NCBI GenBank assembly: GCA_951406725.2
Contig: OX597815.1
Coordinates: 130,448,001-130,512,000 of the forward strand
Source of the DNA: Octopus vulgaris
Taxonomy: Eukaryota
Reading direction: 5' to 3'
DNA length: 64,000 bases
Positions 1,895 through 45,298 of the stretch are shown here, one piece after another. The notes beneath the pieces are model-generated. The model was not told the DNA's origin, made no database searches, and was given only the letters and a program-made list of their open reading frames with translations. A program made the translations under genes and the position numbers. The stretch's first letter is position 1; each line of letters starts with the position of its first letter.

Positions 1895-2497
1895 TGAGTC
1901 AAACAGAAAATAAATTTATAATTCTATGGTGCTAATTGTTTTCTGAGGCTCAAAGAGAGGGCTGGGTCCATTACCTTTGTAAGCTCTCCTAAAACCTATG
2001 AGATCGATATCATTAACATTCCTCTTGAAACTGAGTCAATACTAGCGAGAAATACAAGCAGAGAGGGAATTCAAGAAGGAAGACGTTCTAGGAAGGAAGG
2101 ATTGGGTGTAATTAAGAAGGGGGGCGATGGGGAGAGAAAGAGAGAAAAAGAGGGACAAAGCGTTAGTAGAGGTGGCACAATTCCAGCCAGAGCCAGTGAG
2201 GAGACACCATACCTGTGAGACATTAGGCTAGAATGTGTCTAATTTTACCGCAATAAGGAATTAGATGTTTTCCCGCCCTGATCAAGGCGATCTTAGACGA
2301 AGCGGTATCCACCGATGGCATTCGTTTCCTGTGTATCGTTAACGAAAACTCACAGTGCCTAATATATTTTTTGAAAGGTTCACGATTTGAGGGCGGTTTG
2401 GTTGCAATATTAGCATGTCAAGTCGTCATGTGAATAGAAAGCAAACCATATGACCTAGACACGTCTCAGTTTTAATCAAAATTTAATTTCTACTAAC

Positions 2498-2554
2498 GTT
2501 TATTTTCCGTTGGTGGTGGTATAACTAATGCATCTCGTGTTGAAGCGGTTTTAA
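2498..2554 (-). CDS. array micro-exon type A, 57 nt (KTASTRDALVIPPPTENK)
   Basis: TTTTTTTCTAG acceptor, GTTAGT donor, phase 1-1; paralog of 5015-5071. Confidence 0.62.
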
Positions 2555-3835
2555 CTAGAAAAAAATTAAAATCAGAAAGCAAGTGACAAGCTAAATTGAA
2601 CATCTTATTCACGAACAGCCTTAAGGTCTTAAGTGGATTTTTTGTTAGTGGTGTTACTGATTCAACTTGAATTGTGGTTTTTGTAGCTAAAAAGTTAATT
2701 TCTGAGCAACGAGACCATACATTTGTTTTAAATGAAAAGTCATTACTATTGTTCAACGGTGAAACTGATTTTAGAAACTAAAAAAGAAATGAAATATCCT
2801 AAGTCTTGCAAATATTTTTCAATCTGTTGAAGAATTTGAGACAAGATTGGACATCGCTTCATATCTTTCTTGAAGTGCAAACAATCGAAGTGAATACGTC
2901 ACGAATAGAAGGCAAGCTAAATCTAAAGTTCTACGGCACTAATCTGCATTTTCTTTTCTCTCTACATGTTTGGTCTCGATGAAGACCGGCTATACTCTTG
3001 TATCTTCGCAAGCGCTCCTAAATCAACGAAGCCGATGTTATTAGAGAGTGAGTTCAGAGGGCTGAGAGTCTTGGAAGGAATTTGCTGAGGGCCTAGTAGT
3101 AAAGGCACATGACAGTGGTTAAGGTATTCGGCTCACGACAGCAAGTTCGATTCCAGGAGATTCGTTGCGCTATTGAGCGAGATACTATCTCAGCTGGGGA
3201 CAATGAACTATAATTCAAAGGGTCAGCATTGTCACATTCTGTATCACGCTGAATCTTACTGATAACTATGCTAAATGTACACATGTTTGTGGAGTGCTCA
3301 CTCACTTGCATGTTAATTTCACGAGCAGGTTATTCCGTTGATTTGATCAACTGGAACCCTTGTTGTAACTAACCAGAGTGCCAGTAATTAGTTGGACCCA
3401 AATAGAGCGATGAGAAGAGAAGCGATAAATAGGATGGCACAGCTTCAGTGGAGATGACACGAGCCCAGCCAGACCCGTGGAGTAGAGACCGTTATAGTTG
3501 AGACAGAAAGGGCAGAGCGGCGGGATAGTATGCTGGAGCGTATATGCAACTTCATGCCAGAGAAAATAAGATTTTAGTATTGTCGCCCCGATGGAGCAAG
3601 CCTATTGTGAAAAGCATTTCACCCATAGTAAGTCTTTTCCTGAGTGAGAGTAACTAAGACCCACAGAATACTATGTCTTTTCTGTCATGTAGTTCGTAAT
3701 CTGAGGGCAATTTAGTTTTATTCAAGCATGCCTAGCAATTATGTTTTCAAAGTAACAAGCAAACCATATGATCTATAAATCTATATTTCATCTCTACATG
3801 ACTATTGTTTTAATTAGAATTTAATTTTTACTCAC

Positions 3836-3880
3836 GTTTACTTTCTGTTGATGATTTAAACAGAACTCTCATTTTAGTAT
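3836..3880 (-). CDS. array micro-exon, 45 nt (TKMRVLFKSSTESK)
   Basis: CTCTTCTAG acceptor, GTGAGT donor, phase 1-1. Confidence 0.6.
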
Positions 3881-5014
3881 CTAGAAGAGTAAAATTAAAT
3901 TAGGAATAAAAAGACGAACAATATGCAAACTTTTAAATTGACATTTCGTCCGTGTTTTATTAAAATTTTTACTCACTTTTTTTTATCCAATGGTGAAATA
4001 GTGACCGTAAATTTAGCAACTAAAGAAATTAGATATTCTCTGCAGACATGTAAATAGTAATTTTAAATCTATATCAGCATTAAAGACTTAAAGAGAAAAA
4101 ATAGGTATTGAGTCGTTTCGTATATATCTATAAGTATAACTTAAGTGGATAATGCACGAGCAAGAAAGAAGCTAAATCTAAAAGTTCAATGGTCCTAATG
4201 CTGAGTCTGAAGGCAGTGCCAGAGTCCATGTATCTCAGACTCCGAGACCGGTTCTTGAACCTTTATAAATCAACGCCAGCGGGATATATGAACAGTAAAG
4301 GACTTCTATGAGGTTTACATTCCAGAAAGGGAAGTTTGGGTGTAGAGGGCCTGTGAGAAAAGACACGAAAGCACTAGTGGTTAGGATATTGCACTCATTT
4401 ACAAGATGGTTTCGATTCCCAGATCGGGTGTTGTGCTCTTGAGCAAATTACTTTTTCCAGCTTCACTCCGCTGTAAACCAGTAACTATGATATGGACTGG
4501 AGTCCTATTCAGGGGGAATGTTGTGGTCTAGGTCATCAATACGCCACGCAAAGCAAGTGAGCGACTATGAATCATAGGACTCGAGGCTAATGTGCAGGGG
4601 TTTGATGGCAATTGGACACAAGTAGGATAATGAGATGGGGAGAGATAGGCTAGCAAAACCTGGAGGTGACATGAGCCCAGCCAGATCCGCAGAGCGGAAT
4701 ACAAGTATGTTTAACTTTATACCAAGAAGGAACTTGGCATTTTCATTTGTCATCCTTGATCGAGCAGATGTAGGATGAAGTGGGTTGCAGCTATGACCAG
4801 TCATTCTTTTCCTGTGTACAGGTAACAAAGGCCCAAAGTATCCATTGCATCTTTTTTCTAAGGTGAAAGTTCGTGATTTGAGGGTGGTCTGGCTGCAATA
4901 CAAGCATGTCAAGCAGTCATGTGAAGTTAACAGAAAGCAAAGCATATGATCTATAAATCTAGATTTCATCCCTACATGTCTCAGTCTTAATAGGAATTAC
5001 ATTTTTTTACTCAC

Positions 5015-5071
5015 GTTTATTTTCTGTCGGAGGTGGTGTTAATAATACATCTTGTGTTGAAGCAGTTTTAG
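5015..5071 (-). CDS. array micro-exon type A, 57 nt (KTASTQDVLLTPPPTENK)
   Basis: TTTTTTCCAG acceptor, GTGAGT donor, phase 1-1. Confidence 0.7.
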
Positions 5072-5152
5072 CTGGAAAAAAAATTACGAAGATCAGAAGG
5101 CAAGCGACAAGCTAAATTGAACATCTTATTCACGAATAAGATCTAAACTTAC

Positions 5153-5206
5153 ATCGATTTTCATTTGGTAGTGTTACTGGTTTAAGTGGAGTTGAGGATT
5201 TTGTAG
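5153..5206 (-). CDS. array micro-exon type B, 54 nt (TKSSTPLKPVTLPNENR)
   Basis: CTTTTTAG acceptor, GTAAGT donor, phase 1-1. Confidence 0.68.
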
Positions 5207-5548
5207 CTAAAAAGGATTAAAAATTAAATTCTGAACAAAGAGACCAAGTAACAACTAAATTCGACGTTTTATCTGTACTCATCCATGAATATTAGGTTTA
5301 AATCAGTTTACTTTTCTTGTTCAATGGTGAAAGAATTTGAGCTTGAGTGATGGAGTTTATTGAAAGGAATTTCATCAATAGGACAATTTTAGTTTTAATT
5401 GGAATTTATTTTTTACTCTCGTTTATCTTCTGTTGTTGTTGGTGGTGTAAGTGCTGTAGCTAGAGTTAAAACGGTTTTAACTTGAAAACTTTACAAAGAT
5501 CAGAAAGCAAGGTTAAGTATAGATCTTAACCTTAAGATCTATACTTAC

Positions 5549-5602
5549 ATCGATTTTCCTTTGGTGGGGTTACGACTTTAACTTGGGCTGTGGTTTTTAG
5601 AG
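5549..5602 (-). CDS. array micro-exon type B, 54 nt (LKTTAQVKVVTPPKENR)
   Basis: TTTTAG acceptor, GTAAGT donor, phase 1-1. Confidence 0.65.
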
Positions 5603-5905
5603 CTAAAACGAATTTGAAATTAAATTCTGAACAAAGATCAAGCAACAACTAAAATGGACATTTTAGCTGTACTCCTCCATTAATATTAGTTTTAAATGAG
5701 AAGTTTACTTGTTCAATTGTGGAGGAATGAGTGATAGGGATTTTGTTGAAAGTAATTTCATCTACTTGACAATTATAGTTTTAACTAGAATTTTTACTCG
5801 CGTTTATCTTATCTTGGTGGTAGTGTGAGTGCTGTAGCTAGAGTTTAAACGGTTTTAGCTAGAAAAAATTACGAAAACCAAAATAACCTTAATATCTATA
5901 CTTAC

Positions 5906-5950
5906 ATCGATTTTCCTTTACTGGTGTAACTTGAGCTGTGGATTTTGCAG
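5906..5950 (-). CDS. array micro-exon type B, 45 nt (AKSTAQVTPVKENR)
   Basis: TTTTTAG acceptor, GTAAGT donor; in-frame 9-nt deletion relative to the 54-nt copies. Confidence 0.65.
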
Positions 5951-6339
5951 CTAAAAAGAATTTTAAATTAAATTCTGAACAAAGAGATCAAGCAACAACT
6001 AAAATGGACATTTTAGCTGTACTCATCCTAAAATATTAGTCTTAAATGATAAGTCTCTACTTTACTTGTTCAATGTTGAAAGAGTTTGTGCTCGAATGAT
6101 AGAGATTTTAGTGAAAGGAATTTCATCCCTACGTGAACTTAATTGTTTTAATTCGAATTTAATTTTTAGCAATGTTTATCATTTGTTAGAAGTGTAACTG
6201 ATACAGCTCCAGTTAAAGCGGTTCTAGCTAGGAAAAGTTAATTATGAAAAATGAAAAACCAGATTTTTTTTTTTTTAATGAACAGCTCATTTTATCCCCA
6301 AATATTAGTTTTATTTTAAAATAATTGAACTAAACTCAC

Positions 6340-6372
6340 ATTTGTTTTCTATCCGTGGTTTAACTGATTTAG
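6340..6372 (-). CDS. array micro-exon, 33 nt (KSVKPRIENK)
   Basis: TTTCAG acceptor, GTGAGT donor; ends in ENK like the other array exons. Confidence 0.55.
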
Positions 6373-7839
6373 CTGAAAGTAACCATTTTAGTTGCTTAAA
6401 TAAAAGTTAAGAAATCTATTAAGAGATAGAAGTTAATTTTTCAAATTAAAAGTCTTGAGGTGAAGGCTGCAGGGATATGTTAGCTTTGACGTCTGTCGAT
6501 AGCCACCAACGACGTAAGTAAATTTACTATGAAAAATCGAAATTAAACCATAAATTTACTATATCCACAGTTCAATTCATCCATTTTAATTTGAATTCGT
6601 CGGAAATTCAATTAAATTTACTGACTTTAAAAATACTCTTCAATTATAGAGTTGCTATGCATGGAATAGCAATTAGTTTGTATTGATCATTAAGCGTTTG
6701 TGAAAAAATGTTATTTTTCCTGTTTCAAAACAACTTTTGGTTTTCATTGTCTATTTTCGCCTTATTAGATAGCTGATTATTCCGACTCAAAAATTATTCA
6801 ATTGTTTAAAATGTTGCGTCAAACTGTCAACGATTTCAAATCAGTCAAGAAATGCAAAATGTTAAAAAAAATATCAGTTATACTAACTGGTCTTTGGTAC
6901 TTTCATTTCGGTTTTTTCATTAGATGCAAAATTATCTAGTTTAGAAAGTCAAACAAAACATTGATTACAAATTCTTTAATGCAAATGAAATAAAATGCAA
7001 GTCATCTACCTAATCTGAACTAATAAGTTATTTCATAATTCCTGCGATAAGTTTATTCTAACAAGTTGGTGATGTTCAACTAAATATTGAAATTTGTCAA
7101 TCGTCTACTTAAACTAGTGATCAAATCCTAACAGTCTTTAGATTCAACTATCAACCCTGTTTTTGAAATATTTTTACAATCCCAAAAGAAAACGTTACAT
7201 TGATTTGATAAAACGATGACTCAAAGTTGATGGTGAATCCAGTTGTTACATTATCTTTCAGCTATGTAATGTGAATAGATTTAGACTAGGCTGAAATCAA
7301 TAAATACGTTCGAAATGGTCTATTTGTTAAAATAGATTTGTAAAGAAAACCTAGAATTGAAGATTTTCGAACTGCAAGATAAATATGTCAATATTGCCTT
7401 GCTTTGGCTTAAATCCTCAATTATTTGATAGAATCGTAAGATCCCCGTCATGATATAACGTGTGATACATTTTAAGACATGGAGGAGCTCATCTCTATTC
7501 AGGTCTGACAACAACCGATTTCTACCAGAAATTAGAAAACAAAGAGTAAGAGAATGTCGAGATGACTAGTATATTATCACCCTGAAAGTATGACAAGCAA
7601 AGTTGGCTTCAGTGAGATTTAACCCAAGAGCGTCGACAGCCGAAGTGACTATCGCAAATCAATCTCTAATGACTGCTAATCGTCCGTCTCTCTTCCAACA
7701 CGTGTCGACAAAACCATCTTTAATCATTCAACAACCTTTAAGATTTAGGTTAAACTGAAAACCAAAACAGAATATAGGGTTTATTAGATTTGAATATATA
7801 CTATGTCATCTGGATTAAGTTTTGGGTAGCTAAGCTCAC

Positions 7840-7863
7840 CTGACTCTTCATCGGTAGAAAAAT
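7840..7863 (-). CDS. candidate acidic micro-exon, 24 nt (FSTDEES)
   Basis: TTTTTTTCAG acceptor, CAG|GTGAGC donor, symmetric phase 1. Confidence 0.65.
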
Positions 7864-8490
7864 CTGAAAAAAAATAAATGTTGACATTTAAATATTCATG
7901 AAATGTTGAAACTGAACATATTTCTTTGCCGATTAAATAATGCGGGCTTATTCTCTGCAACAGATATAGAGGTTTTAAACTTAATGTGGGCCGGTTTATC
8001 ATATGTCGAAATCTAGCTCCAGATGACCTTTTAAAAATTGAAGATTTCAGAAATGGAGTCATGAAAAGAGAAAAAATAGCGAACTCGCTTATTGAATTTG
8101 TTCAGAGTAGAAGGAACTTGCACAATGTGGCGCGCATTGCGATTGAGCTAAAAAATTACGTGTTCACAAATGGAATTTGTAAAATGATCATGTCTGTAGA
8201 CTAATTTTTCCTTCATTTGAGAAAGCATATAAATATCTGGCAGATTTGAAGTCAAGTGGAAATTCTTTAATGATGTAAACCTGAACGAATGTGATTACAA
8301 TAAGTTGATTTTTTTCCTAAATACATAAATATTGAAATTGTTTTCAACAAAATACTCTGGCTTAGAATAAAGACAAGAATTGACCGAGAAAATTCACAAG
8401 CGTGAATGAAGCGTTGAATATCCTTTTGTATTTAACAAAAGAACTTAGCTATTAGCTACGGTTGGGTATTGTAGGGTCATAGAAACTTGC

Positions 8491-8535
8491 TCCATTTTGT
8501 GCTCAATTGAAGTGCATAACTTATAGCAGTAAAAA
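8491..8535 (-). CDS. candidate phase-1 micro-exon, 45 nt, with GC donor (FTAISYALQLSTKW)
   Basis: TTTCAG acceptor, GCAAGT donor, symmetric phase 1. Confidence 0.3.
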
Positions 8536-8799
8536 CTGAAATCTTGCTACAGACTTAATTGTCAACGTTTGATCTTAGTAAAACTACCTTCCATAGATTA
8601 GGACAGAAGGTTTGCATATTGAAAAAAGTATTCGAATTATTGCAAGTTAAAAGGAAGTAGTTCTGAGAAAGAATGGTTAAGTCGGACATAATGGTAAATC
8701 AATACAAATGGAGATTTTGCAGAAACGCATCTCTGGTCACTATTTTTTTTTGAAAGCACAAACACACGTACTAGAGAGAGAGAGAAAGAGAGAGTTTAG

Positions 8800-9120
8800 A
8801 AGTTTGCTTCCCAACACCACATGGTTCCGGGTTCAGTCCCACTGCATGGCACTTTGGGCAAATGTCTACTTTAGCCTCGAGCCGACCAAAGCCTTGTGAG
8901 TGGATTTGGTAGACGGAAACTGGGAGCCTGTTGTATATTATATATACATGCATCTATGTTCCCTCACCCACCATCGCTTGACAACCGATGATTGTGTTTA
9001 TATATATCCCCGCAACTTAGCAGTTCGGCAAAAGTGATCGATAAAACAAGTCCTGGGGTCGATTACTGCGACTAAAACCCTTTAAGGCGGGCTCCAACAT
9101 GGCCGCAATCAAATGCTCGA
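8800..9120 (+). mobile_element. tRNA-derived octopus-type SINE family 1 (other copies at about 13190, 19800, 25750, 27705, 30000, 32455, 34070, 38325, 54235, 57085, 62800, 63310)
   Basis: Recurrent GTGGCTGTGTGGTAAG...GGTTCAGTCCC head, internal microsatellite and GCATGGCCGCAGTC tail. Confidence 0.85.
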
Positions 9121-9125
9121 AAGAT

Positions 9126-9173
<48 letters not shown>

Positions 9174-9205
9174 GAGATAGAAAGAGACATTTCGTTCTTG
9201 CTCAC

Positions 9206-9316
9206 CTGAATCGCTAAAAGAATCGGAATAGCTACTCCATGAATAACAATTGAGAATCATGTCATCACTGTCGCTTGAGAAATCACTTTCTGAAGATGAC
9301 GCGGGTTTTTTCATAG
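9206..9316 (-). CDS. candidate Ser/Asp-rich phase-1 exon, 111 nt (MKKPASSSESDFSSDSDDMILNCYSWSSYSDSFSDS)
   Basis: TTCTCTTAAAG acceptor, CAG|GTGAGC donor, symmetric phase 1, protein-like acidic composition. Confidence 0.65.
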
Positions 9317-9952
9317 CTTTAAGAGAATGTTTAAAAGTAACGATTAAAATCTAACCATTGTTCGAAAAAAAAAAAAAAAAACATTAAAAAATAATAAAAA
9401 ACTAATAGGGTGTGGTACAAGAGTTTCGAAGTTATATTGACAGCAGTTTCAAGAATCGATTTGAAAAGTCGTCGTTGCAAGTAATTTATATTTGTACATT
9501 TAGAGCTGGTGTTTATATTTCAAAGTTTTAATATAATGCACACAAACTTATATCCGAATTCAATTAGAGTTTGTAATTGGTGATTCAGATCAACGAGACT
9601 AGATTTATGAAATAGACAAGAGCTCCTGTGAAGATTTCTAAACAACTTTAGCAAGAATTAAATGCCAACAATTGGGAATCAAAAATGGTTCGCTGTTTAT
9701 CTTTGGCGTTGTTTAGTTTCAGGTCAGCTATGTTCAAACAAATCTGATCATAGGAATTCCATCTCAGACCATCTACTTCCTACCAGTGTATCTAATATTT
9801 CATTATGTAATGTCTTTTACAGACTGATTCACCTGCTGTTCCTAGATGGAGCCATACCATTCTCCCACTGGCTGACTTACCTTAAGTCGCTCGAATATTA
9901 GATTTAACCCTTCATTAACTAAAAGATACCGCTGCGTTACCGTTATACTTAC

Positions 9953-14190: not shown

Positions 14191-14259
14191 CTTCTATGGT
14201 AATTTTCCACGTTTTGGAAATATATGTTCTTAGTTCCTCTTCAATTCTTGGATTAAATT
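14191..14259 (-). CDS. candidate phase-1 cassette exon, 69 nt (FNPRIEEELRTYISKTWKITIE)
   Basis: Strong TTTTTCTTCTCTAG acceptor, AG|GTATTT donor, symmetric phase 1. Confidence 0.55.
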
Positions 14260-17987: not shown

Positions 17988-18198
17988 CAAATTTTTTTTC
18001 TGAAGGTTCTTTTACTTTAACAAAAGTACCGCCACAGATATTAGCATGGATACGAAACCATTTCTCCTTATTGGAAGGAGGCCTGTTTTGAGCTCGTCGA
18101 ATAACTCTATGCTCGTAGTTAGATTTTCGACATGGACCGTTACATTTCCAAACATGAGTCTGCAGATGGTGACATTCAGAATGGAATTCATGGAAAAT
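17988..18198 (-). CDS. SPRTN: SPRTN-like zinc-binding-domain exon (IFHEFHSECHHLQTHVWKCNGPCRKSNYEHRVIRRAQNRPPSNKEKWFRIHANICGGTFVKVKEPSEKKF)
   Basis: 211 nt, phase 0 to 1. C-x3-C...H-x3-C ligands, plus RAxNRxPS and CGGTF.K.KEP motifs typical of the Spartan ZBD. Confidence 0.94.
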
Positions 18199-19546
18199 CT
18201 GTTTCAGAAGAAAGAATATTTAGGCGATAGATTAAAATGTAACAGACTTTAGTCAATGATTCAATGGCAGACTATTCAGTAGTTTTCTTGTAAAATTGTT
18301 TTTGGAGAAGTAAATTTTTAAGCACGAAAAGCTATGGATATCATGTAAATATTGGGTAGAAAAACGCATTTAAAGAGAAAAGAAAAGAGAAAAGGGTCGA
18401 TGGATTCCCGTGCAACTCAAACTCACGTCTTATGGACAAGTTTCTAAAATCGATAGAGAAATTTCAAGGATTGTTTTGGTGTCTTTCATTAAACAATATT
18501 TACGAGACAATTCGATTAATTTTGTAGAAATAAAAGATATTAGATTATATTTTAAGAATTTTACTTAAATATAGTAATAGCCAATTATTAGAATTTGATA
18601 TCACGGTACTGACCGTGATATCGGTTGTTGGTCCCAATGCGCTTTGTATAGTTTTAGCCTTCGGACGATGCCGCCTTGCAGGTTAGGCGAGCAAGCCAAC
18701 ATTCCCCTTATCAGAAGATTCCATCGCATAGATACCCATTTACAACCGAATGAACTGAAGCGCAACGTGAAATGAAGTGTTTTTGCTCAAGAACACAGCG
18801 CGCCACCCTCGTCCTGGAATCGAACTCACGATCTAGCAATTGTGAGTGCAACACTAACCACTAGACCACGCGCCTTCACACAGAACTCCATATACTTACA
18901 CTTTGTAGTAAAGCTTTAGGTGATTACAGATGTCGCGTAGTCGACTTCATGAGTTTAAAGCTATTTTTACTATGTACATCATTTACTATGTGTATATAAT
19001 TTACTAGTATAGAAACCATTTTAAGTTTTATGAAATTTTATTCATAAAGCAGGTTGTAGCAGTAAAATGATTTAAAGAACATTGTATACAGTAAGCTTCC
19101 GTTGAGAATTCGGAGAGAAAATGCACGACATCAAACTGAGAAGAAAGCGCGATTGAATCTGGAGATTGTTACAGTTTAGAAAGCAATGTTTACATAGTGG
19201 TACTGAGTTCCATACAAATCATAAAAGGCCACACATTGCCCAAGTGCCGCAAGGTACTCTTGTCCGATTTTCAATAAACAGCGTCAAAAGAAAGATTGCT
19301 GTATTGCATTATAAAATGCAGCTGGCAGACAAACTCACCAATACACTTTTGTTATAAACAAGACTACGTTTGAAAGATAACTTACATTAAATATTTGGGC
19401 AATGCTCCAAACTAGCGCTAAATTGTTAATTTTTTTTAATGATTATCTTAAATTATATTTTCTTTGGCGCTGGTTTCTTACATTCTACACCAAATAACAA
19501 ACGCTGCCAGAAATTTACATAAATTCAATAAATTAGTTATAATCAC

Positions 19547-19621
19547 TTCTAGCTTCATTCCCGACCGTTTCTCAATTCTTTTCTTTTCCGCGTGGAATTT
19601 CGGGCCATGTTCTTGGTGCTC
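19547..19621 (-). CDS. SPRTN: SPRTN-like exon (EHQEHGPKFHAEKKRIEKRSGMKLE)
   Basis: Strong TTTCTTTGCAG acceptor. Third zinc ligand in HGPxF. GTGATT donor in phase 0 joins the next exon in frame. Confidence 0.88.
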
Positions 19622-21457
19622 CTGCAAAGAAATAATTAAAAAGACGAATTTTTAAAAATGTTCTAATATTAATACAGGCGAATAGTTTCCAATAAATTGC
19701 AATAGACTTCACCACCCCACCATCACGTCTAAAATAAAATTTAAAAAACTATCCGCACTTCGCAGTTCTGACTTTAGATTTAACTTCCGTATACAACTGC
19801 ATTTTATTCTTTTACTCGTTTCAGCAATTGGACTGCAGCCATGCTGGAGTTCCGCCTTGAAAGATTTAGTCGAACAAATCTACTCCATTGCTTATTTCAC
19901 TGATCTCTTTTTGCTGAACCTGTTACGGAGACATTAACCAACACTGGTTTCCAAGAAGCGGGGAAATTATACACATACAATCTTACGCGTAATTTCTATC
20001 GTCCAAATTCACTAAAGGAATTTGTCAGCCTAGAACTGTGGAAAAAATCTGAGGTGCTGTGTAGTGGGATTGAACCCGAAATCAAGGGCTTACGAAGCAA
20101 ACGATCACACAGCCATAATGTTGCATACCTCTATATTTATTTTCGAGATCCATTTGCTGTATCGATTGGTTTCATACATAGTTCTATTCCTACTCGGGAT
20201 CGAAGTGGCCAGACAGCACAACTCAGTGCCCTAGGTTTTATGGAGATACCCGATATATTCTTTTCTACTAGATACAAGGCCCTAAATTTGGTGGGAGGGA
20301 GCCAGTCGATTAGATCGACCCCAGTACGCAACTGGTACTTTATCGACCCCGAAAGGATGAAAGGCAAAGTAGACCTCAGCAGAATTTGCACTCGAAACGC
20401 AAAGACAGGCGAACCTGATATATTGAGTAGGATCGCCATGTTGGGCAGTGACTGAAGTACCTCAATGACTAGAAAAAAAAAAAATCACTAATCCAAACCG
20501 TGTCCGGACAATGATGCCAGGCCTACACTTGGACCCAGACATCAGAAAAACCGTGAAATCCGAACTGGGAATTCAATTCCATAGAAAACGTATCATTGTG
20601 CACAAAAATCTCTAGAAAGTTAATTGCTAAAGTAAAAAAAAAGTGCCAATGCAGGAAGGAGTTATACATTAAAAGTTAGACCCACGACTATTTGAAGATT
20701 CAAAAGTGGAAAATAATTTTCAGCTGATAATTGAAATTTTGCGCTAGTTCGAAACTTCGGAATTTGGTGTCACCCATAAAAATTGATAAGTTGAAAGAAA
20801 AACGTAGAGAGGCTTTAAATCAAATACTATTTTTCAGTCACAACGAATTTCATCGGGTAATATTTTACCGTGACAGAATTGTTGAAATATAAGTCAGCTC
20901 TGATTTGAATTTGAATGTCGTTGAGCTTAAAGTACCAGACAAGTACTGGAGTCGATTTAATCAAACATGCCCTACTACCAAAAAATAATACGGCCCTTTA
21001 TCAGGGGTTAGGAATAACTATTAGTTCAGATATATTTGACCAATTATATCGAAACAATTTAAAGGTGACTCACTGTCACAATGTAATAGTGATATAAAAT
21101 AGTGTGGGTACTTTAGGACAGATTGTGAGATACTAGTTTCCGCCAATTAAACGCATCCCAGAAATCTAGTCTGGATAACTTAACTGCAAAATGTTAGCAC
21201 AATATCCTACGAGTGTTGATCCGCGTAATATTACAGTGGTTAAATATCCTTACAAACCCCAAGATTCATAGTTCTTTTCCATAGGTGCTTAGATTCAGCT
21301 TCCGTTTTAAAACTCACATTTTGTCTTCAAATCGATAACGCCCTCCATATAAAAGAAAAATAATCAAGTTTTATTTTATCAGAATATAAACACGTCAAAT
21401 ACGATTATTTGCCATTACGCAAGAAAACTAGAGTTATAGATATTCTATTTTACTTAC

Positions 21458-21499
21458 ATTCTCCTTAGTTACCCAAAGATAAGCATGGATCATTTCGTG
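21458..21499 (-). CDS. SPRTN: SPRTN-like 42-nt catalytic micro-exon (HEMIHAYLWVTKEN)
   Basis: TTTTTCAG acceptor, GTAAGT donor, phase 0 to 0. Carries the HExxH zinc-protease motif HEMIHAYL. Confidence 0.95.
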
Positions 21500-22404
21500 C
21501 TGAAAAATGAATTTAAAATATTCTAAAATTATTTATACAAATCTAATTTATAAACCCAAATTAACAAATTAAATGTGGTACAATTTTATAAGAAATTAAA
21601 TGTATTATTGCACAAGGGGAAAGGTACATCGAACAATAGGGCTTCAGGAGTGAGTGCGTGTATGCGCCTCCGACTGGGCACTCCGGCTACGAGAACGAGT
21701 GTTCCATTTGATTAGATCAGCCTGCGCCTGAAATTAATGTGCAACTGACTAAAGCACTCTACAGTCACGTGAACCCTTAAGTTCTCAGAGATTCAGCATA
21801 ACAGAATGTTACAAGGCTGGTCCCTTTGAATTACAGATACAACTCATTTTTGCCTGCTGAGTGAACTGAAGCAACGTGAAAGTCTTGCTCAAGGATACAA
21901 CCTGCAACCTTACGATCGTGAGCCGGATACCTTAATACACACACACACACACACAGTATAGTTACAAGTGGAGAGAAGACAATATAAGGCCAAGAGAGAC
22001 AACCGGAAGCTTTATTTTGGTTGTTTCTTTTAGTCTGTCTAATTCCCCTCGTTTTTTGAAAGTTTTTGCTAAAACTAAAATTGAGTTTGATAAAATTTCA
22101 ATTACAGCAAAAACTGAAATTTAGGAGACTTAAACTTTAAGTAGAAAAAAAAATTACAAAATGATATTGAATATTATGAAAATTCAGTGGTGTGGAATGT
22201 GCGGACTGCAGAGGGCGGCCATTTTACATTTAATGAAGTTGGGTGGCCAATTTGGTTACCTCTTGCCATTATGAAAGGCTAAGAAACACTGAATAAGGAG
22301 ACAAATCTATGAAACTGGAAATTAACTTTACAATTAGTACTATGTGGATATATTTAAAGAGCTGGAACATTGGCAGTAATGAATATAAACACGGTTATAT
22401 TTAC

Positions 22405-22513
22405 CAGTAACGTCTCCAGTAGATCCTCTAGTGGTCTGAGTTCAAGAAGTGGTCGACTCAAAGATATATTGCATATCCTGTCTACGTCAGGTTGTAGGGT
22501 ACAACCAGCACAT
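22405..22513 (-). CDS. SPRTN: SPRTN-like exon (CAGCTLQPDVDRICNISLSRPLLELRPLEDLLETLL)
   Basis: T-rich AG acceptor, GTAAAT donor, phase 2 to 0. Resembles Spartan CAG...I.LS.PLL.LRP..DL.ETLL. Confidence 0.93.
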
Positions 22514-25083
22514 CTTATTAAAAAAAAATTAAAGGTTAAAAAAGAAAGAAAAAAACTTTTCGAACCTAAATATTTAGGTGTTTAAAATGAAACAACGAAA
22601 ATTTTCAGTTAATGAGAACTGATGTCTATAGCTTGTGTATTTAAAACCAACAAATATATGTATTGGGGTGTAAAGTCTAAATTTGCAACTAAGGAGCGTT
22701 AAATATATTTAACATTAGTATCTAAGTAAAAAGATTCCAAATGATAATGTAATCTTGTTGCCGCTCTCCTTTACTTTTCGACACAAATGTAAGATGGCCG
22801 TTCAATTCGAACATAGAATGTTTAAGTTTGAAAGTCGAAACTGCTTGTGAATAATATCACGATATTTCATAATTGTTAACCGGAATTAATTGGTGACATA
22901 AGTTATGAAGTGATGTCAGCGCCAAGTTGAGATGAAGAGAAATCCTATGGTATTTCATTCGCGAGGTGGTTCCCAGTCTCACGATTAGAATTATATTATA
23001 CACACCTTGGTTGGAAGCTCCCTAGATTGAAGCTCTTGGTTTAAGCCTTCCAATCTTGTGGGTAAACCCGATACAGAATGACTGTCCTTTAATGCTAGAA
23101 CAATAACTTCTGAATGGTACATGAAGATATTTGGTGGACAGGTGCATATTGTATACGGAGGTCAAAATGAGCAGAGAAATAGAGGAGGATCGGATTCGCT
23201 TCTTAATATGGGCAAAAAATATAGAAGGGTATATCTAAATATGGATTAAATGAAGATTTCAAATTTCGGCACAAGGCCAGCAAGTTTGGAGAAGAGGAAA
23301 CCGATGACATCAATCCTGAAAGGGATGAAAGGCAAAGTCAACCACGGCGCAATTTGAACTCAAAACGTAAAGACGGACGAAATCCTAAGAATTTCGATTC
23401 TGCTCGAGGGTTTCATACAGGTACCTTAATCTGGACAAAACTGTCAGGCACATACGACACTAACAATTATTCCAGCCACTGAAGTATAAATCAAGGCAAC
23501 AGCTACTAAGGGGCCGATATATGGTCACCCAAAACAGTCACATTATCCACAAATACTAATTTTGGGGTGAAAGGTGGATAGAGAACTTATTGGATAATGA
23601 AGTCAGAGATAAAAATATCAGGGTGGTTTCGGTTGGAAAGCCTTTTCTCAAATCGGCTGGATGTGTAAATAAACAGCAACAGAAATCATTGGTAGAGATA
23701 ACAGTTGTTTGAGTCCAACTCTGGTTTGAAGTCGACCTGTGCATGATATTACAGAAGTAGCTGTGTGATAAGAAGTTTGTTTCCCAACTACATTGTTCTC
23801 GGTTCAGTCCCACAGTGTGGTACCTCGGGCGGATCAAAGCATTCTCCGTAGCTGAAAAGGGGGCAGGTTGTGTACAAAAAATTTAATTAAGGGGTGTTTT
23901 GGGGGTGGGGTACAAAAAGAAGTCTTGTGATCCTTTACATTGTTATTTGAATTAAGCGGAAAATTATTTTTATCGTATTGTTTTATACTTTTTTGTAGCT
24001 CTAGTTTTCTACAATTTTTACTTATCGTTTTTTAATTTTGAATAAATTTTACTGCTTTTCAGACATGTAACGGAGTGTCAAGAAAAAGAAAATTCATCTG
24101 ACAACCCGATATATATTCTTTAGTTTGTCATTTGACTGCGGCCATGCTAGAGCACCACCTTTTTTTAGTCGAACAATCTTTTGATGTGGGTTTAAAAAGC
24201 AAACACCCTATTATATACTGGAGATAATCTTTGTTTTTAACAATTAGGTTGTGGTGGGAGGGAAATTTGGCTGCTGTTGCTACCAGCTCAAGCGACCACA
24301 CAAAGGAATTCTGTTCCCTATTTGTTATTAGATTCCGGCCAAGCTGGGGCACTGCTTGGAAGAATTTTAGTCGAACGAATCAACCCCAGGGCTTATTTTC
24401 ATTTAAATTTTGATACTTATTCTATCGGTCTTTTTTTTATCGAACCGTTAGTTTGCTGTGATGTAAATATTACACGTAAACACAAATTGGGCAAGACTTC
24501 CTTTTGTATCCCACCCCCAAATACCCCTTAAATTTTTTTTTTTTTTTACACACAAACCCTTCGGCTACGGAGAGAAGACGAATCAGCAAAAAAATTGACA
24601 AAAAAAAACAAAAAAAAAAACAGCATTCTAAAATTAACTCCCGCTCCCCCAAATTCTTCATTTTAAACTTTCAGAGTTTTTTTCCCCTACAATATATGCG
24701 GGAAAATACGGAGATTATGATTCTGAAAAAAAAATTTTCCAAAAATTTCTATAAAAATTTTTTTCCACAAATATTTTTTTGTCAAAATAGGCGGAAAAAT
24801 GCGGAGATTTTCTAAATAGGGTTAGGGTTTTAGGATTATGGAGAAAAATGAAGAAATTGGGGAGAAGTAAGGTGGGGGCAAAACATTTCAAAATTCCGAC
24901 CTTTTGGCAATTTTCTGGAATCTCCGTAATGCGAAAAGGTGGGCTTTTAGCACAAAAATTAACAAAAAACATTAATTTGCGAGAAAATGGGGTGGGGACG
25001 GGAGGAAGTCTTTCCCACAAATTGACATATTTGAAAGATTAATTAAAAAAAGACATCGCATCATATCGGTCATTAACACTTAC

Positions 25084-25247
25084 GAGGTCATTCGTTTGCT
25101 CCAGCTAATTCTTACATTTCCTGTAAGTTTGCAATAAAAATATTTCTCATCATAAATCGTAAATAATTGGTGAAGTAAAAGGTTTGCTTCTTTTTCGATT
25201 AATCCCTTTCTCGAAGAAAAGTCTTTTCTGTTGATATTAACCGGCAT
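25084..25247 (-). CDS. SPRTN: SPRTN/Spartan-like protease, first recognisable coding exon (MPVNINRKDFSSRKGLIEKEANLLLHQLFTIYDEKYFYCKLTGNVRISWSKRMT+S)
   Basis: Matches the SprT N-terminal pattern L..LF..Y...YF...L..V.I.WS.RMT. Ends in phase 2 at a GTAAGT donor. The frame stays open for about 19 codons upstream of the ATG, so the true start is uncertain. Confidence 0.88.
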
Positions 25248-25992
25248 AGTTTCGTCTTTTCTCTTGATATTATACGGCTTAGTTCCCGGCTTCCTCTCGC
25301 TATACTATTAACAACAACGTGAAAATCTAAAGTGCCAAACTTTTCTTTATATAATAATCTTGATATTATTTGCATATTTTGGGAGATACCATTTTGAAGT
25401 TGCGAGATGTTCTAAGTGCATTTATAAATATTTACATTATCTAGTTGGGATCAATAAACAACGGGATCGATTACTATCACAGCAAGAGTGTCCAGAATTA
25501 AAAGTTGGAATTTGTTTGTTTGCATTTTATTGTGACCCTTCACATTGTTATTTAAATTAAGAGGAAAATTATTTTCATCGTATTATTTTATGCTTTTTTT
25601 TTTTTTTTTGTAGCTTTAGTTTTTCTCTACAGTTTTTGCTTATCGTTTTTGAACTGAATAAATTTTACCGTTTTTCATTAATATGACGGAATGTCAAGAA
25701 GAAACCAAAAAAACGAACAAATTCATCTGCCAACCCGATATATATTCTTTTATTCTTTTATTTGTTTCGGTCATTTGACTGCGGCCATGCTGGAGCAACG
25801 CCTTTTTTAATCGAAAAAAATCGACCCTAGGCCTTATTCTCTATAAGTCAAGTACTTATTCTATCGGTCTCTTTTCGCTAGGTTACGGGGACGTAAACAC
25901 ACCAATATGGGTTGTCAAGCGATGGTGGAGGTACAAACACAGACACACAAACATATACATACATACATACATACATACATACATACATAATG

Positions 25993-26187: not shown

Positions 26188-27658
26188 TTTTATTTCTTTT
26201 AAATTGCCACAAAGGCATTACATAGATGGGGACACAACAACAGATGTGGGGACATATAACAATTAAAATTAAAATATGATGCTATGAATGACACATGAAA
26301 ATGAACATGAAAAGCATTAAAATCAAAATATTAAAATAATGACACATGAATGATAACTTGAGAAATGAGAATATGAAAAGTGTGTACCCCACACTGAGTA
26401 ACACCACTCGCCACCTCTGAGTTCTGAGTCCTCTTTAGTCTTTGATCTAGTCTTTCGTTTACCGTCTTCTCCATCGCTGAGTGACAACACTTTCTCCTCC
26501 ATGTATACGTAACCTTTTTCACCGGGAGAGGGGTCTTGTAAATTTTGTGATGTCCATTCTTTCTTCTTTTTTCTTGTGGGGAGAGGGGGTGGGTGGGTTG
26601 GTCTGAGTGGTCTTGGGTAGGATGGAGTTGGTCTGGGGTCCCACATCACACTGACTGTTCTTCCTCTTCTTTCTATTTTTCCTTTTATTCTCTGTTACTG
26701 TCCATTCATCCTCCTTGTTCCTTCCTTTTTCTCCTCCGTCTCCACCACCGCTTCTTCTGTCGTTTTCCTCTGCAGAGGGCAGTGCGCTCTAATGTGGCCG
26801 TTTTGGCCACATTTAAAACATCGTGGGATTCTGCCCTACACCCACACTCTTAACACAATCTCTCCCAACGTCACCGTCTCCACCAAACTCTCCAATTGCT
26901 TCTCCTCTGCCTGTATAATGAGGTCCAGTCTTTTTCCTCTCCATCCTCCGTCCTCCGTTTCCGTGGCTTGGAGGACAGCCACCTCCTCCTCCTCCTCCTC
27001 ATTTCCAAGCCGCTTCTATATCGGATGGAATTCCTTCTACCCTCACCTTAGAAGTCTTTCTTCCAAGGTACATGGGCAGAAGTACCATTTCCTCCGTTTT
27101 TACAGTTGCACTCGCCAGCCTCTTTGCCTCCTCCGCTGTCTGAAACTGGACAACCACCGTCCCATATCCATTTCCTTTCGCTATGTATGTCACTTCCTTC
27201 GAAAGCTCCTTCAATGCTTTTTCTACTTTTTCCATCTCCACCTTCCTACTCTCCGCTCCACCATCCTACTCTCCGCTCAACCTTCCTACTCTCTGTTCCA
27301 CCTTCCTACTCTCCACTGAGTACACCTTCTTTTCCATATTTTCCATTACCCTTTTCGGGGGTAATAACTTTACGTCACCGCCCATCATCTGTGTTATATT
27401 ACTCAGCTCTTTCAGTCCGGCTAGATCCACCTCCCTTTTTTTAACCTCTGCAGCCTCAGCAAAACTCTTTACCCTTTCCAAATGCTCGTCCATTCTATTT
27501 ACCGCCTTAACGAGCTCCTCTTCCACTGAGGATAACTCTTACTCGCTAAGGTCTGAATACATTGTTTTTACCGGTATAACACCCGCTGCCAAGCAGCACA
27601 AAAAATTCCGTCCGACTCGTCAAAAATCAACACAGCGAATACACAGACGCATGCGCGA
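26188..27658 (-). mobile_element. ORF1-only L1/Tx1-like non-LTR element, pseudogenised, inserted in a SINE head
   Basis: 11-bp target duplication GAAGCAAGCTT (26177-26187 and 27659-27669) and an A-rich 3' end. Stop-interrupted ORF from about 27562 with an RRM-like segment and a CCHC knuckle CFKCGQNGHIRAHC. Confidence 0.8.
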
Positions 27659-40975: not shown

Positions 40976-43013
40976 TTTTTTTTCTTCTTTCAAATTTGCT
41001 TCCATTTCTTACCGAGTGTCTTCCCGACTCCTAGGGCAAAGAAACTCATAGTATACATTGGTAGGCCATTAAACCAAACTCAATAGTTCGTTAATTTTTT
41101 TTTTTTTTTTTTTTTAAGTTGAATTAAAATACATGAGCAGCAACAGTTCTCACATCGACAATGCTCTTCTCAATACGTGTGATGTACCAGTTAAGACAAT
41201 CTTTTGCACTTCTTGCAGGGATGGTAAGCCAGGGATCATTCTCATAATTTTCGGTTCCCTTCTTGATCATTCCTAGTGCTCCTACGATCACTGGTATTGT
41301 AACCGCCTTGAGATGCCACATTTTCTCAATTTCAATGAGTAGGTCTTTATATTTTCTGAGCTTGTCAAACTCTTTCGCTGAGATATTATGATCACAGGGG
41401 ATGCTCATGTCGATCAATAAGCAAACTTTATTGTTTTGGTCTTTCACAACAATATCTGGTTTATTGGCCTTGATGGTTCGGTCTGTATGTACTGGAAAGT
41501 CCCACAGAATGGTTACATTTTCTCCTTCAGTTACAGCCTCAGGGTGGTGATTATACCACTTGTCGGCAGTTTTGATATTGTAATGCCGACTTATTAGCCA
41601 GTGGAGATATTGGCCAACTCTGTCATGTCTTAATTTATACTCCACTGGTGCTAAGACCTTACATCCAGAGATTAGGTGGTCCACTGTTTCAATCATGTCG
41701 TTGCAGAATCGGCATTTTGGGTCTGCTCCATTTTTCATCACATTGGCCTGGTAGTTCCGGGTTAATAGGCTTTGATCTTGAGCAGCCAGGATGAAACCTT
41801 CGCTCTCTGCTTTTAGCCCTGAGCTCCGTAGCCACTGATGGGTTTGCTTCTGGTCAACATCAGCTTGTTTGCTGCGGGCCACATATTTGCCGTGCAGAGG
41901 TTTCTCCTCCCACCTATCAGCCAATTGCTCGTGCGCTTTTTTCATTGCCATCATTTTCACCTTCTTTGCAACAATAGTTGCCGTACTTCCCTCGGGTTGT
42001 TCAGTTTGGGTATCCTGCACGAGATCAATAGCAAATTTTTTGCTTTCCTTTATGATAGAATGAAGCTTCTTCCGTCTCTCGTGATTTTCCACGAGCTTTA
42101 GCATCCAGTCATTCGATATTTCGAGATATTTGGCCAGTCCAATTGTGGTTGTTTTGTAAGCTAGTTCAAATTGGATCAGGCCTCGACCTCCTTGGGCTCT
42201 GGGAAGGTAAAGGCGATCTACGTCTGCCTTTGGGTGGTGCATCCTATTACAACTCAGCAGCTTGCGTATTTTCCTATCTATATTCTTTACTTCACTCATA
42301 TTCCAGTTCAACACATTGTAGCTATAAGTAACAACTGGAACTGCTAAGGAATTTATAGCTAACACCTTGTTACGTGCATTTAGTTCAGATTTCAGAACTG
42401 CACGAACTCTCCTATAACATTCCTTCCTGATCTTCTCTTTCATGCTTGCATGCTGAATACCAGAGCCTTCATTTATCCCTAAATATTTGTATGTTTGTTC
42501 TTGCTCAAGCTCTCTTATGACTGTGTCAACATCTAACACGACTGAATTTGTGGTCTTCACTTTCCCTTTCTGGAAAGTGGCCTTGACACACTTCTCAAGT
42601 CCAAACTCCATCCCGATGTCATCGCTGAATGCTTTCACGGTGCGCAATAGGCCTTCAAGTTCATTATTGTCTTTACCATAAAGTTTTAAGTCATCCATAT
42701 AAAAGAGATGGCTTATTTTTTTATTGGCAATTTTATACCCATACCCTGTTCTGTTTAATTCACTTGTAAGGGGTATTAGGGCTATGCAGAATATTAAAGG
42801 TGAAAGTGAGTCACCTTGAAAAATTCCACAGTTGATGTTTATATTTTCTGAGGCAAGTACTCCATTAGAGTGGTATAATTGGAGATTCGTATTCCACAAC
42901 GACATATTGTGCTTCAGGAAGTTTGAAATTACAGGGGAAATTTTGAAGATGTCCAGCGATCTCAAGATCCATAGATGCGGTATACTGTCGAAGGCCTTTT
43001 TATAGTCAATCCA

Positions 43014-43014
<1 letters not shown>
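40976..43014 (-). mobile_element. 5'-truncated R4/Dong-type (RLE) non-LTR retrotransposon
   Basis: RT motifs (DYKKAFDS, GIFQGDSLSP, YMDD), CCHC (CRFC..ETVDHLISGC) and a KPD..D..K..KY endonuclease. (TAA)n at both ends. Frameshift near 41245; the natural end ...LRRALSM* is at 41150. Confidence 0.93.
41124..42965 (-). CDS. RT-zinc knuckle-restriction-like endonuclease ORF (partial)
   Basis: 613-aa ORF with the motifs above; N-terminally truncated and C-terminally frameshifted. Confidence 0.85.
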   Translation of the reverse strand: MRSLDIFKISPVISNFLKHNMSLWNTNLQLYHSNGVLASENININCGIFQGDSLSPLIFCIALIPLTSELNRTGYGYKIANKKISHLFYMDDLKLYGKDNNELEGLLRTVKAFSDDIGMEFGLEKCVKATFQKGKVKTTNSVVLDVDTVIRELEQEQTYKYLGINEGSGIQHASMKEKIRKECYRRVRAVLKSELNARNKVLAINSLAVPVVTYSYNVLNWNMSEVKNIDRKIRKLLSCNRMHHPKADVDRLYLPRAQGGRGLIQFELAYKTTTIGLAKYLEISNDWMLKLVENHERRKKLHSIIKESKKFAIDLVQDTQTEQPEGSTATIVAKKVKMMAMKKAHEQLADRWEEKPLHGKYVARSKQADVDQKQTHQWLRSSGLKAESEGFILAAQDQSLLTRNYQANVMKNGADPKCRFCNDMIETVDHLISGCKVLAPVEYKLRHDRVGQYLHWLISRHYNIKTADKWYNHHPEAVTEGENVTILWDFPVHTDRTIKANKPDIVVKDQNNKVCLLIDMSIPCDHNISAKEFDKLRKYKDLLIEIEKMWHLKAVTIPVIVGALGMIKKGTENYENDPWLTIPARSAKDCLNWYITRIEKSIVDVRTVAAHVF

Positions 43015-43108
<94 letters not shown>

Positions 43109-43109
43109 T

Positions 43110-43290
43110 TTTGGTTTGTCCCAGGTTCGGTCTTATACCTGGTAGAGATTATGTGGATAGCGGGTTACTAAGGTATCCACGAGCTTTCAGCAGTCTTTCA
43201 AGTACTCAGGACCCTCCTGATAATCCTTGCTGTCACTAAGAGACAAACTTTCTGTAGGAGCCCTACCAGGCATTCTATTTCAATCTCTCT
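43110..43290 (-). mobile_element. 3' end of a different Dong-like LINE (mirrored at about 44070-44250)
   Basis: LLQKVCLLVTARIIRRVLST* resembles the RLE C-terminus; followed by (TAC)n(TAA)n. Confidence 0.65.
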
Positions 43291-43419
43291 CTGCCTACCG
43301 ACTATCTTAAATCAAGAAATCCGATTTACAGAATAAATAGCGATCTTTGATTGGACCTGCATCAGTTTTTAGCTGTCGAGACACTAAATCCTTTAAAAAG
43401 TTTGATGCTCCCTAAAATT

Positions 43420-43946
43420 TGCTAAGGAATTTATAGCTAACACCTTGTTACGTGCATTTAGTTCAGATTTCAGAACTGCACGAACTCTCCTATAACATTC
43501 CTTCCTGATCTTCTCTTTCATGCTTGCATGCTGAATACCAGAGCCTTCATTTATCCCTAAATATTTGTATGTTTGTTCTTGCTCAAGCTCTCTTATGACT
43601 GTGTCAACATCTAACACGACTGAATTTGTGGTCTTCACTTTCCCTTTCTGGAAAGTGGCCTTGACACACTTCTCAAGTCCAAACTCCATCCCGATGTCAT
43701 CGCTGAATGCTTTCACGGTGCGCAATAGGCCTTCAAGTTCATTATTGTCTTTACCATAAAGTTTTAAGTCATCCATATAAAAGAGATGGCTTATTTTTTT
43801 ATTGGCAATTTTATACCCATACCCTGTTCTGTTTAATTCACTTGTAAGGGGTATTAGGGCTATGCAGAATATTAAAGGTGAAAGTGAGTCACCTTGAAAA
43901 ATTCCACAGTTGATGTTTATATTTTCTGAGGCAAGTACTCCATTAG
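43420..43946 (-). mobile_element. internal RT fragment, direct copy of 42342-42868
   Basis: Apparently identical sequence and translation. Confidence 0.92.
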
Positions 43947-44249
43947 GGAGCATCAAACTTTTTAAAGGATTTAGTGTCTCGACAGCTAAAAACTGATGCA
44001 GGTCCAATCAAAGATCGCTATTTATTCTGTAAATCGGATTTCTTGATTTAAGATAGTCGGTAGGCAGAGAGAGATTGAAATAGAATGCCTGGTAGGGCTC
44101 CTACAGAAAGTTTGTCTCTTAGTGACAGCAAGGATTATCAGGAGGGTCCTGAGTACTTGAAAGACTGCTGAAAGCTCGTGGATACCTTAGTAACCCGCTA
44201 TCCACATAATCTCTACCAGGTATAAGACCGAACCTGGGACAAACCAAAA

Positions 44250-44334
<85 letters not shown>

Positions 44335-44335
<1 letters not shown>

Positions 44336-45298
44336 TGGATTGACTATAAAAAGGCCTTCGACAGTATACCGCATCTATGGATCTTGAGATCGCTGGACAT
44401 CTTCAAAATTTCCCCTGTAATTTCAAACTTCCTGAAGCACAATATGTCGTTGTGGAATACGAATCTCCAATTATACCACTCTAATGGAGTACTTGCCTCA
44501 GAAAATATAAACATCAACTGTGGAATTTTTCAAGGTGACTCACTTTCACCTTTAATATTCTGCATAGCCCTAATACCCCTTACAAGTGAATTAAACAGAA
44601 CAGGGTATGGGTATAAAATTGCCAATAAAAAAATAAGCCATCTCTTTTATATGGATGACTTAAAACTTTATGGTAAAGACAATAATGAACTTGAAGGCCT
44701 ATTGCGCACCGTGAAAGCATTCAGCGATGACATCGGGATGGAGTTTGGACTTGAGAAGTGTGTCAAGGCCACTTTCCAGAAAGGGAAAGTGAAGACCACA
44801 AATTCAGTCGTGTTAGATGTTGACACAGTCATAAGAGAGCTTGAGCAAGAACAAACATACAAATATTTAGGGATAAATGAAGGCTCTGGTATTCAGCATG
44901 CAAGCATGAAAGAGAAGATCAGGAAGGAATGTTATAGGAGAGTTCGTGCAGTTCTGAAATCTGAACTAAATGCACGTAACAAGGTGTTAGCTATAAATTC
45001 CTTAGCAGTTCCAGTTGTTACTTATAGCTACAATGTGTTGAACTGGAATATGAGTGAAGTAAAGAATATAGATAGGAAAATACGCAAGCTGCTGAGTTGT
45101 AATAGGATGCACCACCCAAAGGCAGACGTAGATCGCCTTTACCTTCCCAGAGCCCAAGGAGGTCGAGGCCTGATCCAATTTGAACTAGCTTACAAAACAA
45201 CCACAATTGGACTGGCCAAATATCTCGAAATATCGAATGACTGGATGCTAAAGCTCGTGGAAAATCACGAGAGACGGAAGAAGCTTCATTCTATCATA
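44335..45298 (+). mobile_element. inverted duplicate of the LINE RT region
   Basis: Reverse complement of 42051-43014; the 324-aa ORF is identical up to KLHSII. Confidence 0.93.

Follow-up and report, generated by a model that had tools for sequence, protein, structure and literature searches.

What kind of Spartan (SPRTN) protease does an octopus make, and what brings it to DNA? The question is raised by a minus-strand gene in a 64,000-nucleotide stretch of the Octopus vulgaris genome (GenBank assembly GCA_951406725.2, contig OX597815.1, positions 130,448,001 to 130,512,000), hereafter the window, in which all coordinates are given. The first five coding exons of this gene lie between positions 17988 and 25247. 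The protease of SPRTN is promiscuous, and what restricts it to crosslinked proteins is still under study. A natural Spartan that lacks most of the controls and has its zinc-binding domain (ZBD) doubled can show directly which parts are required and whether gating is separable from targeting. The octopus gene is a real, spliced and expressed member of the Spartan family. Its two-ZBD architecture without the usual recruitment motifs is undescribed; because the gene itself is already annotated, the value of the locus lies in this architecture rather than in the discovery of a gene. Our preferred reading, tentative at a probability of roughly 0.4, is that the product is an active, DNA-dependent Spartan, probably a specialised duplicate, in which a second finger, carried on a long basic tail, has taken over DNA targeting.

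An expressed Spartan-family gene with an intact catalytic core

The five exons are read from the minus strand, every intron is GT-AG, and the joined frame is free of stops. Exon 1 (25084-25247, residues 1-55) supplies the ATG, a predicted long N-terminal helix that replaces the MIU and the WELxDPxP segment, and the start of the SprT domain, as placed by contigs, frame, alignment and structural model. Exon 2 (22405-22513, residues 55-91) carries the SprT core including L80, the equivalent of human L99, and exon 4 (19547-19621, residues 106-130) carries H110, the third zinc ligand; both are supported by contigs, frame and alignment with the human SPRTN structure 6MDW. Between them, exon 3 (21458-21499, residues 92-105) encodes the catalytic HEMIH and is recognised by its frame and GT-AG borders. 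Exon 5 (17988-18198, residues 131-201) encodes the first ZBD (ZBD1), with C149, C153, H181, C185, R165 and W177 in place and the PxY/FG loop lost, and is supported by contigs, Pfam and the 6MDW alignment.

Transcript evidence comes from contigs of runs X1, X2 and X3, all from one study and classed as RNA by the search tool's guess. These contigs are colinear with exons 1, 2, 4 and 5 and differ from them by one letter or none; no contig piece is listed for exon 3, though at its place each contig has 43 letters left over, a gap of matching size. The first-pass annotation of this DNA, made from sequence alone, had proposed the five in-frame GT-AG exons and had named a lack of spliced reads as the outcome that would undo them; the contigs join the exons. 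Contigs of run X4 continue across exon-intron borders into the introns. Sixteen other runs with the same RNA-type label contain almost none of the words sampled, and runs X9 and X15 gave no exon contigs on 1900-9400; neither result bears on tissue restriction, and neither is used as expression evidence. A 131-residue open reading frame runs from exon 5 into the intron, but reading through is ruled out by RNA contigs that splice at 17988.

At the level of sequence, the match of the five-exon protein to SPRTN is far beyond chance. As had been proposed, H92, E93 and H96 of HEMIH, H110 of HGPKF and the four ZBD ligands C149, C153, H181 and C185 are intact, aligning with human SPRTN (6MDW, E 3.5e-44). 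With human numbering carried over through this alignment and anchored on E112, the equivalents of E112, Y117, H130, L99, R185 and W197 are kept. The octopus protein shares with human SPRTN (also Spartan or DVC-1; 6MDW, 6MDX) a SprT domain with HExxH and a third histidine, followed directly by a four-ligand CCHC ZBD of the Spartan type; exon 5 alone matches the Pfam SPRTN_ZBD family with E 7e-21. The catalytic residues and all zinc ligands are also kept across the three proteins of a cephalopod clade described below, which are only 52-60% identical to one another.

The gene had been thought hidden and its product about 200 residues long, and on both counts the public record says otherwise. Fourteen exons in the window, all GT-AG, join into an open frame of 370 residues that matches the first 370 residues of CAI9718179.1, a 521-residue O. 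vulgaris model, with zero mismatches; by this identity, CAI9718179.1 and the window locus are the same gene. Twelve isoforms of 468-521 residues are on record, those of O. sinensis being named Spartan by RefSeq, and exon 5 is identical to all five proteins of the first search, each from O. vulgaris or O. sinensis. The gene is not hidden, since RefSeq and the O. vulgaris annotation carry it; the public names refer to the same gene and are silent on its divergence and on a second ZBD. The first-pass annotation did not see that ubiquitin-, p97- and PCNA-type motifs are gone, nor did it take in the 3' half of the gene and its second ZBD.

GCNA/ACRC and Wss1 are SprT-like or related zinc proteases that also serve crosslink repair. 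GCNA/ACRC has a long N-terminal acidic region ahead of its SprT domain and a C-terminal HMG box; in the octopus protein, SprT starts at residue 25 and Pfam finds only SprT-like and SPRTN_ZBD. An acidic disordered stretch in the octopus tail is one that we take to be loosely like GCNA. The octopus protein differs from both families by its SPRTN_ZBD, Wss1 structures matching its AlphaFold model only at E ~1 and the comparison with GCNA being one of layout.

Lost recruitment motifs and a second zinc-binding domain

Motifs were counted in 335 canonical SPRTN rows and three cephalopod-clade proteins, using sequence patterns for MIU, DPxP, SHP, PIP-like and UBZ; some of the canonical misses are partial models. 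DPxP is found in none of the three clade proteins against 307/335 canonical rows, PxY/FG in no clade ZBD1 against 328/335, and DxW[WFY] in none against 329/335. The same holds for MIU (0/3 versus 245/335), SHP (0/3 versus 168/335) and UBZ (0/3 versus 269/335), and a pattern search for a PIP-like motif gave no match in protein P0002. The missing DPxP segment is the one that holds L38, a position set by colinearity with bat SPRTN. Compared with human SPRTN, the octopus protein is without MIU, DPxP/L38, SHP, PIP-like and UBZ by pattern search, has a predicted helix where the basic region would be, and ends in a second ZBD; it departs from both the single ZBD and the terminal motifs of the canonical architecture.

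The surface of ZBD1 has diverged as well. Position 179 is Y or F in 329/335 canonical rows and E, N or K in the clade, and the basic region after ZBD1 has a net charge of +1, -5 and 0 in the three clade proteins versus a canonical median of +4. Of four motif differences listed in the first-pass annotation, those that concern DPxP, PxY/FG and DxW[WFY] stand, these motifs being missing in 3/3 clade rows, and HVWKC is rejected as a distinguishing motif, V occurring there in 43/335 canonical rows too. EKWF retains the W197-equivalent tryptophan, is common to both fingers, and appears in 0/335 canonical rows (counted on ZBD1). An altered DNA-sensing surface, which that annotation had also suggested, is consistent with the loss from ZBD1 of the Y179 aromatic and the PxY/FG loop.

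The second ZBD (ZBD2) lies outside the window and is known from public gene models. In full models, SprT (25-128) and ZBD1 (145-193) are followed by a predicted helix (205-226), then by a linker rich in Ser and Asp and a disordered tail rich in Lys and Thr, and ZBD2 forms the C-terminus. Pfam finds on the full model SprT-like (PF10263, E 1e-23) and two stretches of SPRTN_ZBD (PF22934), and nothing else. ZBD2 mostly keeps P-x-F/Y-G together with the R185 and W197 equivalents, which are present in all six fingers examined, and it sits behind a lysine-rich stretch with a net charge of +11 across 40 residues. Structurally, the AlphaFold model gives a predicted local distance difference test score (pLDDT) of ~85-97 for SprT-ZBD1 and 64-83 for ZBD2, with the disordered tail between them and the same strand-helix order in both ZBDs. 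Among structures, the model matches 6MDX and 6MDW alone at E<=0.001, with a root-mean-square deviation of 10.7-10.8 and a different domain angle; this difference is uninformative because, according to the accessible text of 10.1101/2024.11.26.625192, predicted SPRTN models are open and the crystal is closed. In the ESM Atlas, ZBD2 as query gave no usable match, and the whole protein gave SPRTN-like clusters under 0.9.

Two ZBDs occur in 15 of the 364 fetched proteins, comprising the 12 isoforms of the octopus gene and three proteins of one cluster. The latter are P0013 (399 residues, both fingers), assigned to the cephalopod clade by tree and shared motifs only, and its companions P0352 and P0353, each of the three called on a single 1.7-kb contig. 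When a two-finger query was run against 1.84 billion representatives, none of the best 150 matches outside the octopus gene had two fingers. Among the fetched proteins, two ZBDs occur in the cephalopod clade alone, in keeping with the lineage restriction first proposed.

Current models of SPRTN control, as given in the accessible text of PMC7534798 and 10.1101/2024.11.26.625192, involve one ZBD, the basic region and ubiquitin. In the former, single/double-strand junctions are recognised jointly by the ZBD and basic region of human SPRTN, and activity falls with Y179A/W197A, with R185A and with changes to the basic region, these elements being needed for full DNA-dependent activity. Under the preferred reading of a DNA-dependent enzyme targeted by its second finger, ZBD1 would still gate the active site through its R185 and W197 equivalents and would bind DNA less well, since the Y179 aromatic and the PxY/FG loop are gone and little remains of the basic-region charge. 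ZBD2 and its lysine-rich lead-in would then act as a tethered DNA sensor in place of PCNA-, p97- and UBZ-based recruitment. Such an enzyme would cleave proteins bound or crosslinked to DNA in places rich in such DNA, and alternative tail exons may set the reach of the ZBD2 tether. By analogy with Drosophila alone, a germline role is conceivable.

Several observations weigh against this reading. ZBD2, too, lacks the Y179 aromatic (M or K). Ubiquitin activation may survive, since the L99 equivalent is kept as L80; in the accessible text of 10.1101/2024.11.26.625192, ubiquitin activates human SPRTN through L99 and more weakly through L38. The Argonauta model is without ZBD2, one O. vulgaris isoform has ZBD2 truncated, and the partial O. 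bimaculoides model P0050 is without ZBD1, though it ends in an intact ZBD2. P0050 leaves the ZBD1 exon at its start and resumes with the one that follows, which may be an assembly gap or a real loss.

The loss of the Y179 aromatic from both fingers, the loss of the PxY/FG loop from ZBD1 and the low basic-region charge would fit a protease that is active yet no longer DNA-gated, its fingers serving as structural or protein-binding modules. However, the R185 and W197 equivalents persist in every finger, R185A being the more severe human ZBD change in the accessible text of PMC7534798, and a basic-region charge of +1 or less is found in 25/335 canonical rows as well; an ungated enzyme is improbable. 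The incomplete Argonauta and O. bimaculoides models, the fast divergence, and a ZBD2 that lies beyond the window and is not seen directly in RNA contigs could instead point to a decaying duplicate under relaxed selection, or to a ZBD2 that is a gene-model artefact. Against this stand a frame that is open over 14 GT-AG exons, catalytic residues invariant at 52-60% identity, the same two-ZBD layout on the single contigs of P0013, P0352 and P0353, and a ZBD2 that is 92% identical between two Octopus species; decay or artefact is very improbable.

Specialised duplicate or sole ortholog

The octopus protein evolves fast, as the first-pass annotation had judged. Its SprT-ZBD1 domain is 42-46% identical to four mollusc SPRTNs and to frog SPRTN, versus 68-83% among those canonical copies. 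In the tree, Octopus, Argonauta and P0013 form the starred clade on a very long branch, the position of which is not fixed. Within the genus, the protease blocks of O. sinensis and O. bimaculoides are identical at 67/83 positions, compared with 78-82/82 in three same-genus pairs of canonical mollusc SPRTNs, and their ZBD2 is better conserved, at 46/50 (92%). In a 162-row tree, none of the unnamed representatives has a firm place in the clade; P0205 joins it only as a long branch. The ZBD1 and ZBD2 sequences of the clade group together against 26 canonical ZBDs (support 96/82, 49 columns). This grouping fits a putative internal duplication within the lineage, with the adverse point that it may partly be long-branch attraction, because the clade is a long branch, and that the columns are few.

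Whether the gene is a duplicate or the only SPRTN of these animals is about even. No named canonical cephalopod SPRTN appears among the best 120 of 314 matches, none among the best 120 of 1561 matches to a bivalve query, and none among 20 proteins that were looked up, of which 13 share a cluster with a named member. The absence of such a protein from these best matches is suggestive. It fits a sole octopod SPRTN, an ortholog rewired by loss of the C-terminal recruitment motifs and gain of ZBD2 and still devoted to general repair of DNA-protein crosslinks. The equivalents of L99 and Y117 are kept, and in the accessible text of 10.1101/2024.11.26.625192 SHP and PIP are dispensable for repair by human SPRTN and UBZ is not essential, which also favours this reading. 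The best 120 of 314, however, include only 4/26 canonical mollusc copies, though 23 score above the cut-off. About 8/12 independently found mollusc-like copies reach the cut-off of the best 120 of 1561, and the blank from the bivalve query therefore counts somewhat against a second copy. On the other side, DPxP and PxY/FG are kept in 23/23 mollusc SPRTNs and UBZ in 22/23, and motif loss on this scale would be highly unusual for an only copy. A rewired sole ortholog is a serious possibility, if short of probable. Two oyster models, P0248 and P0251, have SPRTN fused with pellino in the annotation, which suggests pellino as a neighbour.

If the gene is a duplicate, as the preferred reading of a specialised enzyme has it, the Drosophila pattern of Spartan diversification extends to molluscs. 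The Drosophila Spartan family (mh, Gcna, CG2694 and CG11322) likewise evolves fast with lineage-specific duplicates; the accessible text of PMC11210505 reports recurrent duplication (27 duplications) and testis-enriched daughters, with copy number, expression and selection shown in Drosophila, a precedent that speaks for a duplicate in octopus. The terms 'ZBD' and 'zinc-binding domain' are absent from the main text of that paper. If instead no other copy exists, DNA-protein crosslink repair in cephalopods relies on an enzyme that is wired differently. It seems unlikely that in cephalopods one enzyme, guided by two DNA-sensing fingers on a tether tuned by splicing, has altogether replaced the SPRTN that depends on ubiquitin, PCNA and p97 for guidance; were this so, evolution would have redesigned an essential protease of crosslink repair in genomes that are very large and rich in repeats, and the result would readily show whether the gating and targeting roles of the ZBD can be divided.

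The full-text literature, outside which most subscription papers lie, returned no paper on SPRTN in cephalopods, on a second or tandem ZBD in SPRTN, on octopus Spartan in DNA repair, or on a SPRTN/ACRC phylogeny with molluscs. Spartan, SPRTN and SprT have no matches in the readable supplements of PMC11202624, PMC9712504, PMC9115989, PMC13218726, PMC12240821 and PMC6341066, and unread files of PMC9115989 and PMC9712504 may list loci. With regard to gonads, Table 3 in the accessible part of PMC11202624 gives EVM0025062, a 'SprT-like family' gene of O. sinensis, among the sex-biased genes, but this gene cannot be tied to the window locus; the signs of that table conflict with those of Table 4, Dmrt1 being marked '+' yet male-high. 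In pearl oyster, the accessible part of a gonad transcriptome paper gives SPRTN as ovary-high.

Tail exons and surrounding sequence

The window is AT-rich, repeat-rich eukaryotic DNA. Upstream of the start codon, the X1 and X2 contigs define a transcribed 5' untranslated region (25248-25319, minus strand) with in-frame stops; the short N-terminus of the protein is real, because these stops lie upstream of the ATG at 25247. The X1, X2 and X3 contigs leave the window sequence at 25319, and their 5' piece, 49 further letters in X1 and X2, is not found in the window. The border at 25319 is without AG (AC in the genome), which might reflect an intron of the minor AT-AC class or a difference between strains. 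A near-duplication of 33 bp spans the start codon at 25221-25284.

Past 17988, the gene continues on the minus strand through nine further exons as far as 2498 and then leaves the window at position 1, the remaining exons including ZBD2 lying beyond it. Exon 6 (14191-14259) encodes the clade-specific predicted helix at the place of the canonical basic region, by contigs, alignment and model. The contigs then define exon 7 (9206-9316), the Ser/Asp-rich linker, and, with GT-AG borders, exon 8 (7840-7863), an acidic micro-exon of 24 nt. Three tail exons are likewise placed by contigs and GT-AG borders: 5906-5950 (45 nt, phase 1), 5015-5071 (57 nt) and 3836-3880 (45 nt). Both X1 and X2 extend through all six of these exons, and the exon that follows 3880-3836 in their contigs is absent from the window. 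The remaining three are alternative: an exon of 48 nt (6888-6935), present in public isoform P0008 and skipped in X1 and X2; a tail exon of 54 nt (5153-5206), which X2 includes and X1 skips according to their contigs; and a tail exon of 57 nt (2498-2554), present in public isoforms and skipped in X1 and X2.

Much of this tail region (2400-6200) is a degenerate tandem duplication (73-78% identity) whose unit carries phase-1 micro-exons of 45-57 nt, some of them alternatively spliced. Four more micro-exon copies, near 5866, 5601, 5481 and 2686, appear unused or are pseudo-exons. At the window's edge, an intron of the gene holds a 22-bp tandem array of 85.5 copies with 94% matches (1-1894). On the other side of the gene, broken minus-strand reading frames at 26500-27540 look by eye like a decayed retroelement ORF1. 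Farther on are long reading frames at 41124-43148 (minus), 43393-44007 (minus) and 44210-45358 (plus), presumably of long interspersed nuclear element (LINE) reverse transcriptase, which they resemble; they are near-identical copies in inverted orientation.

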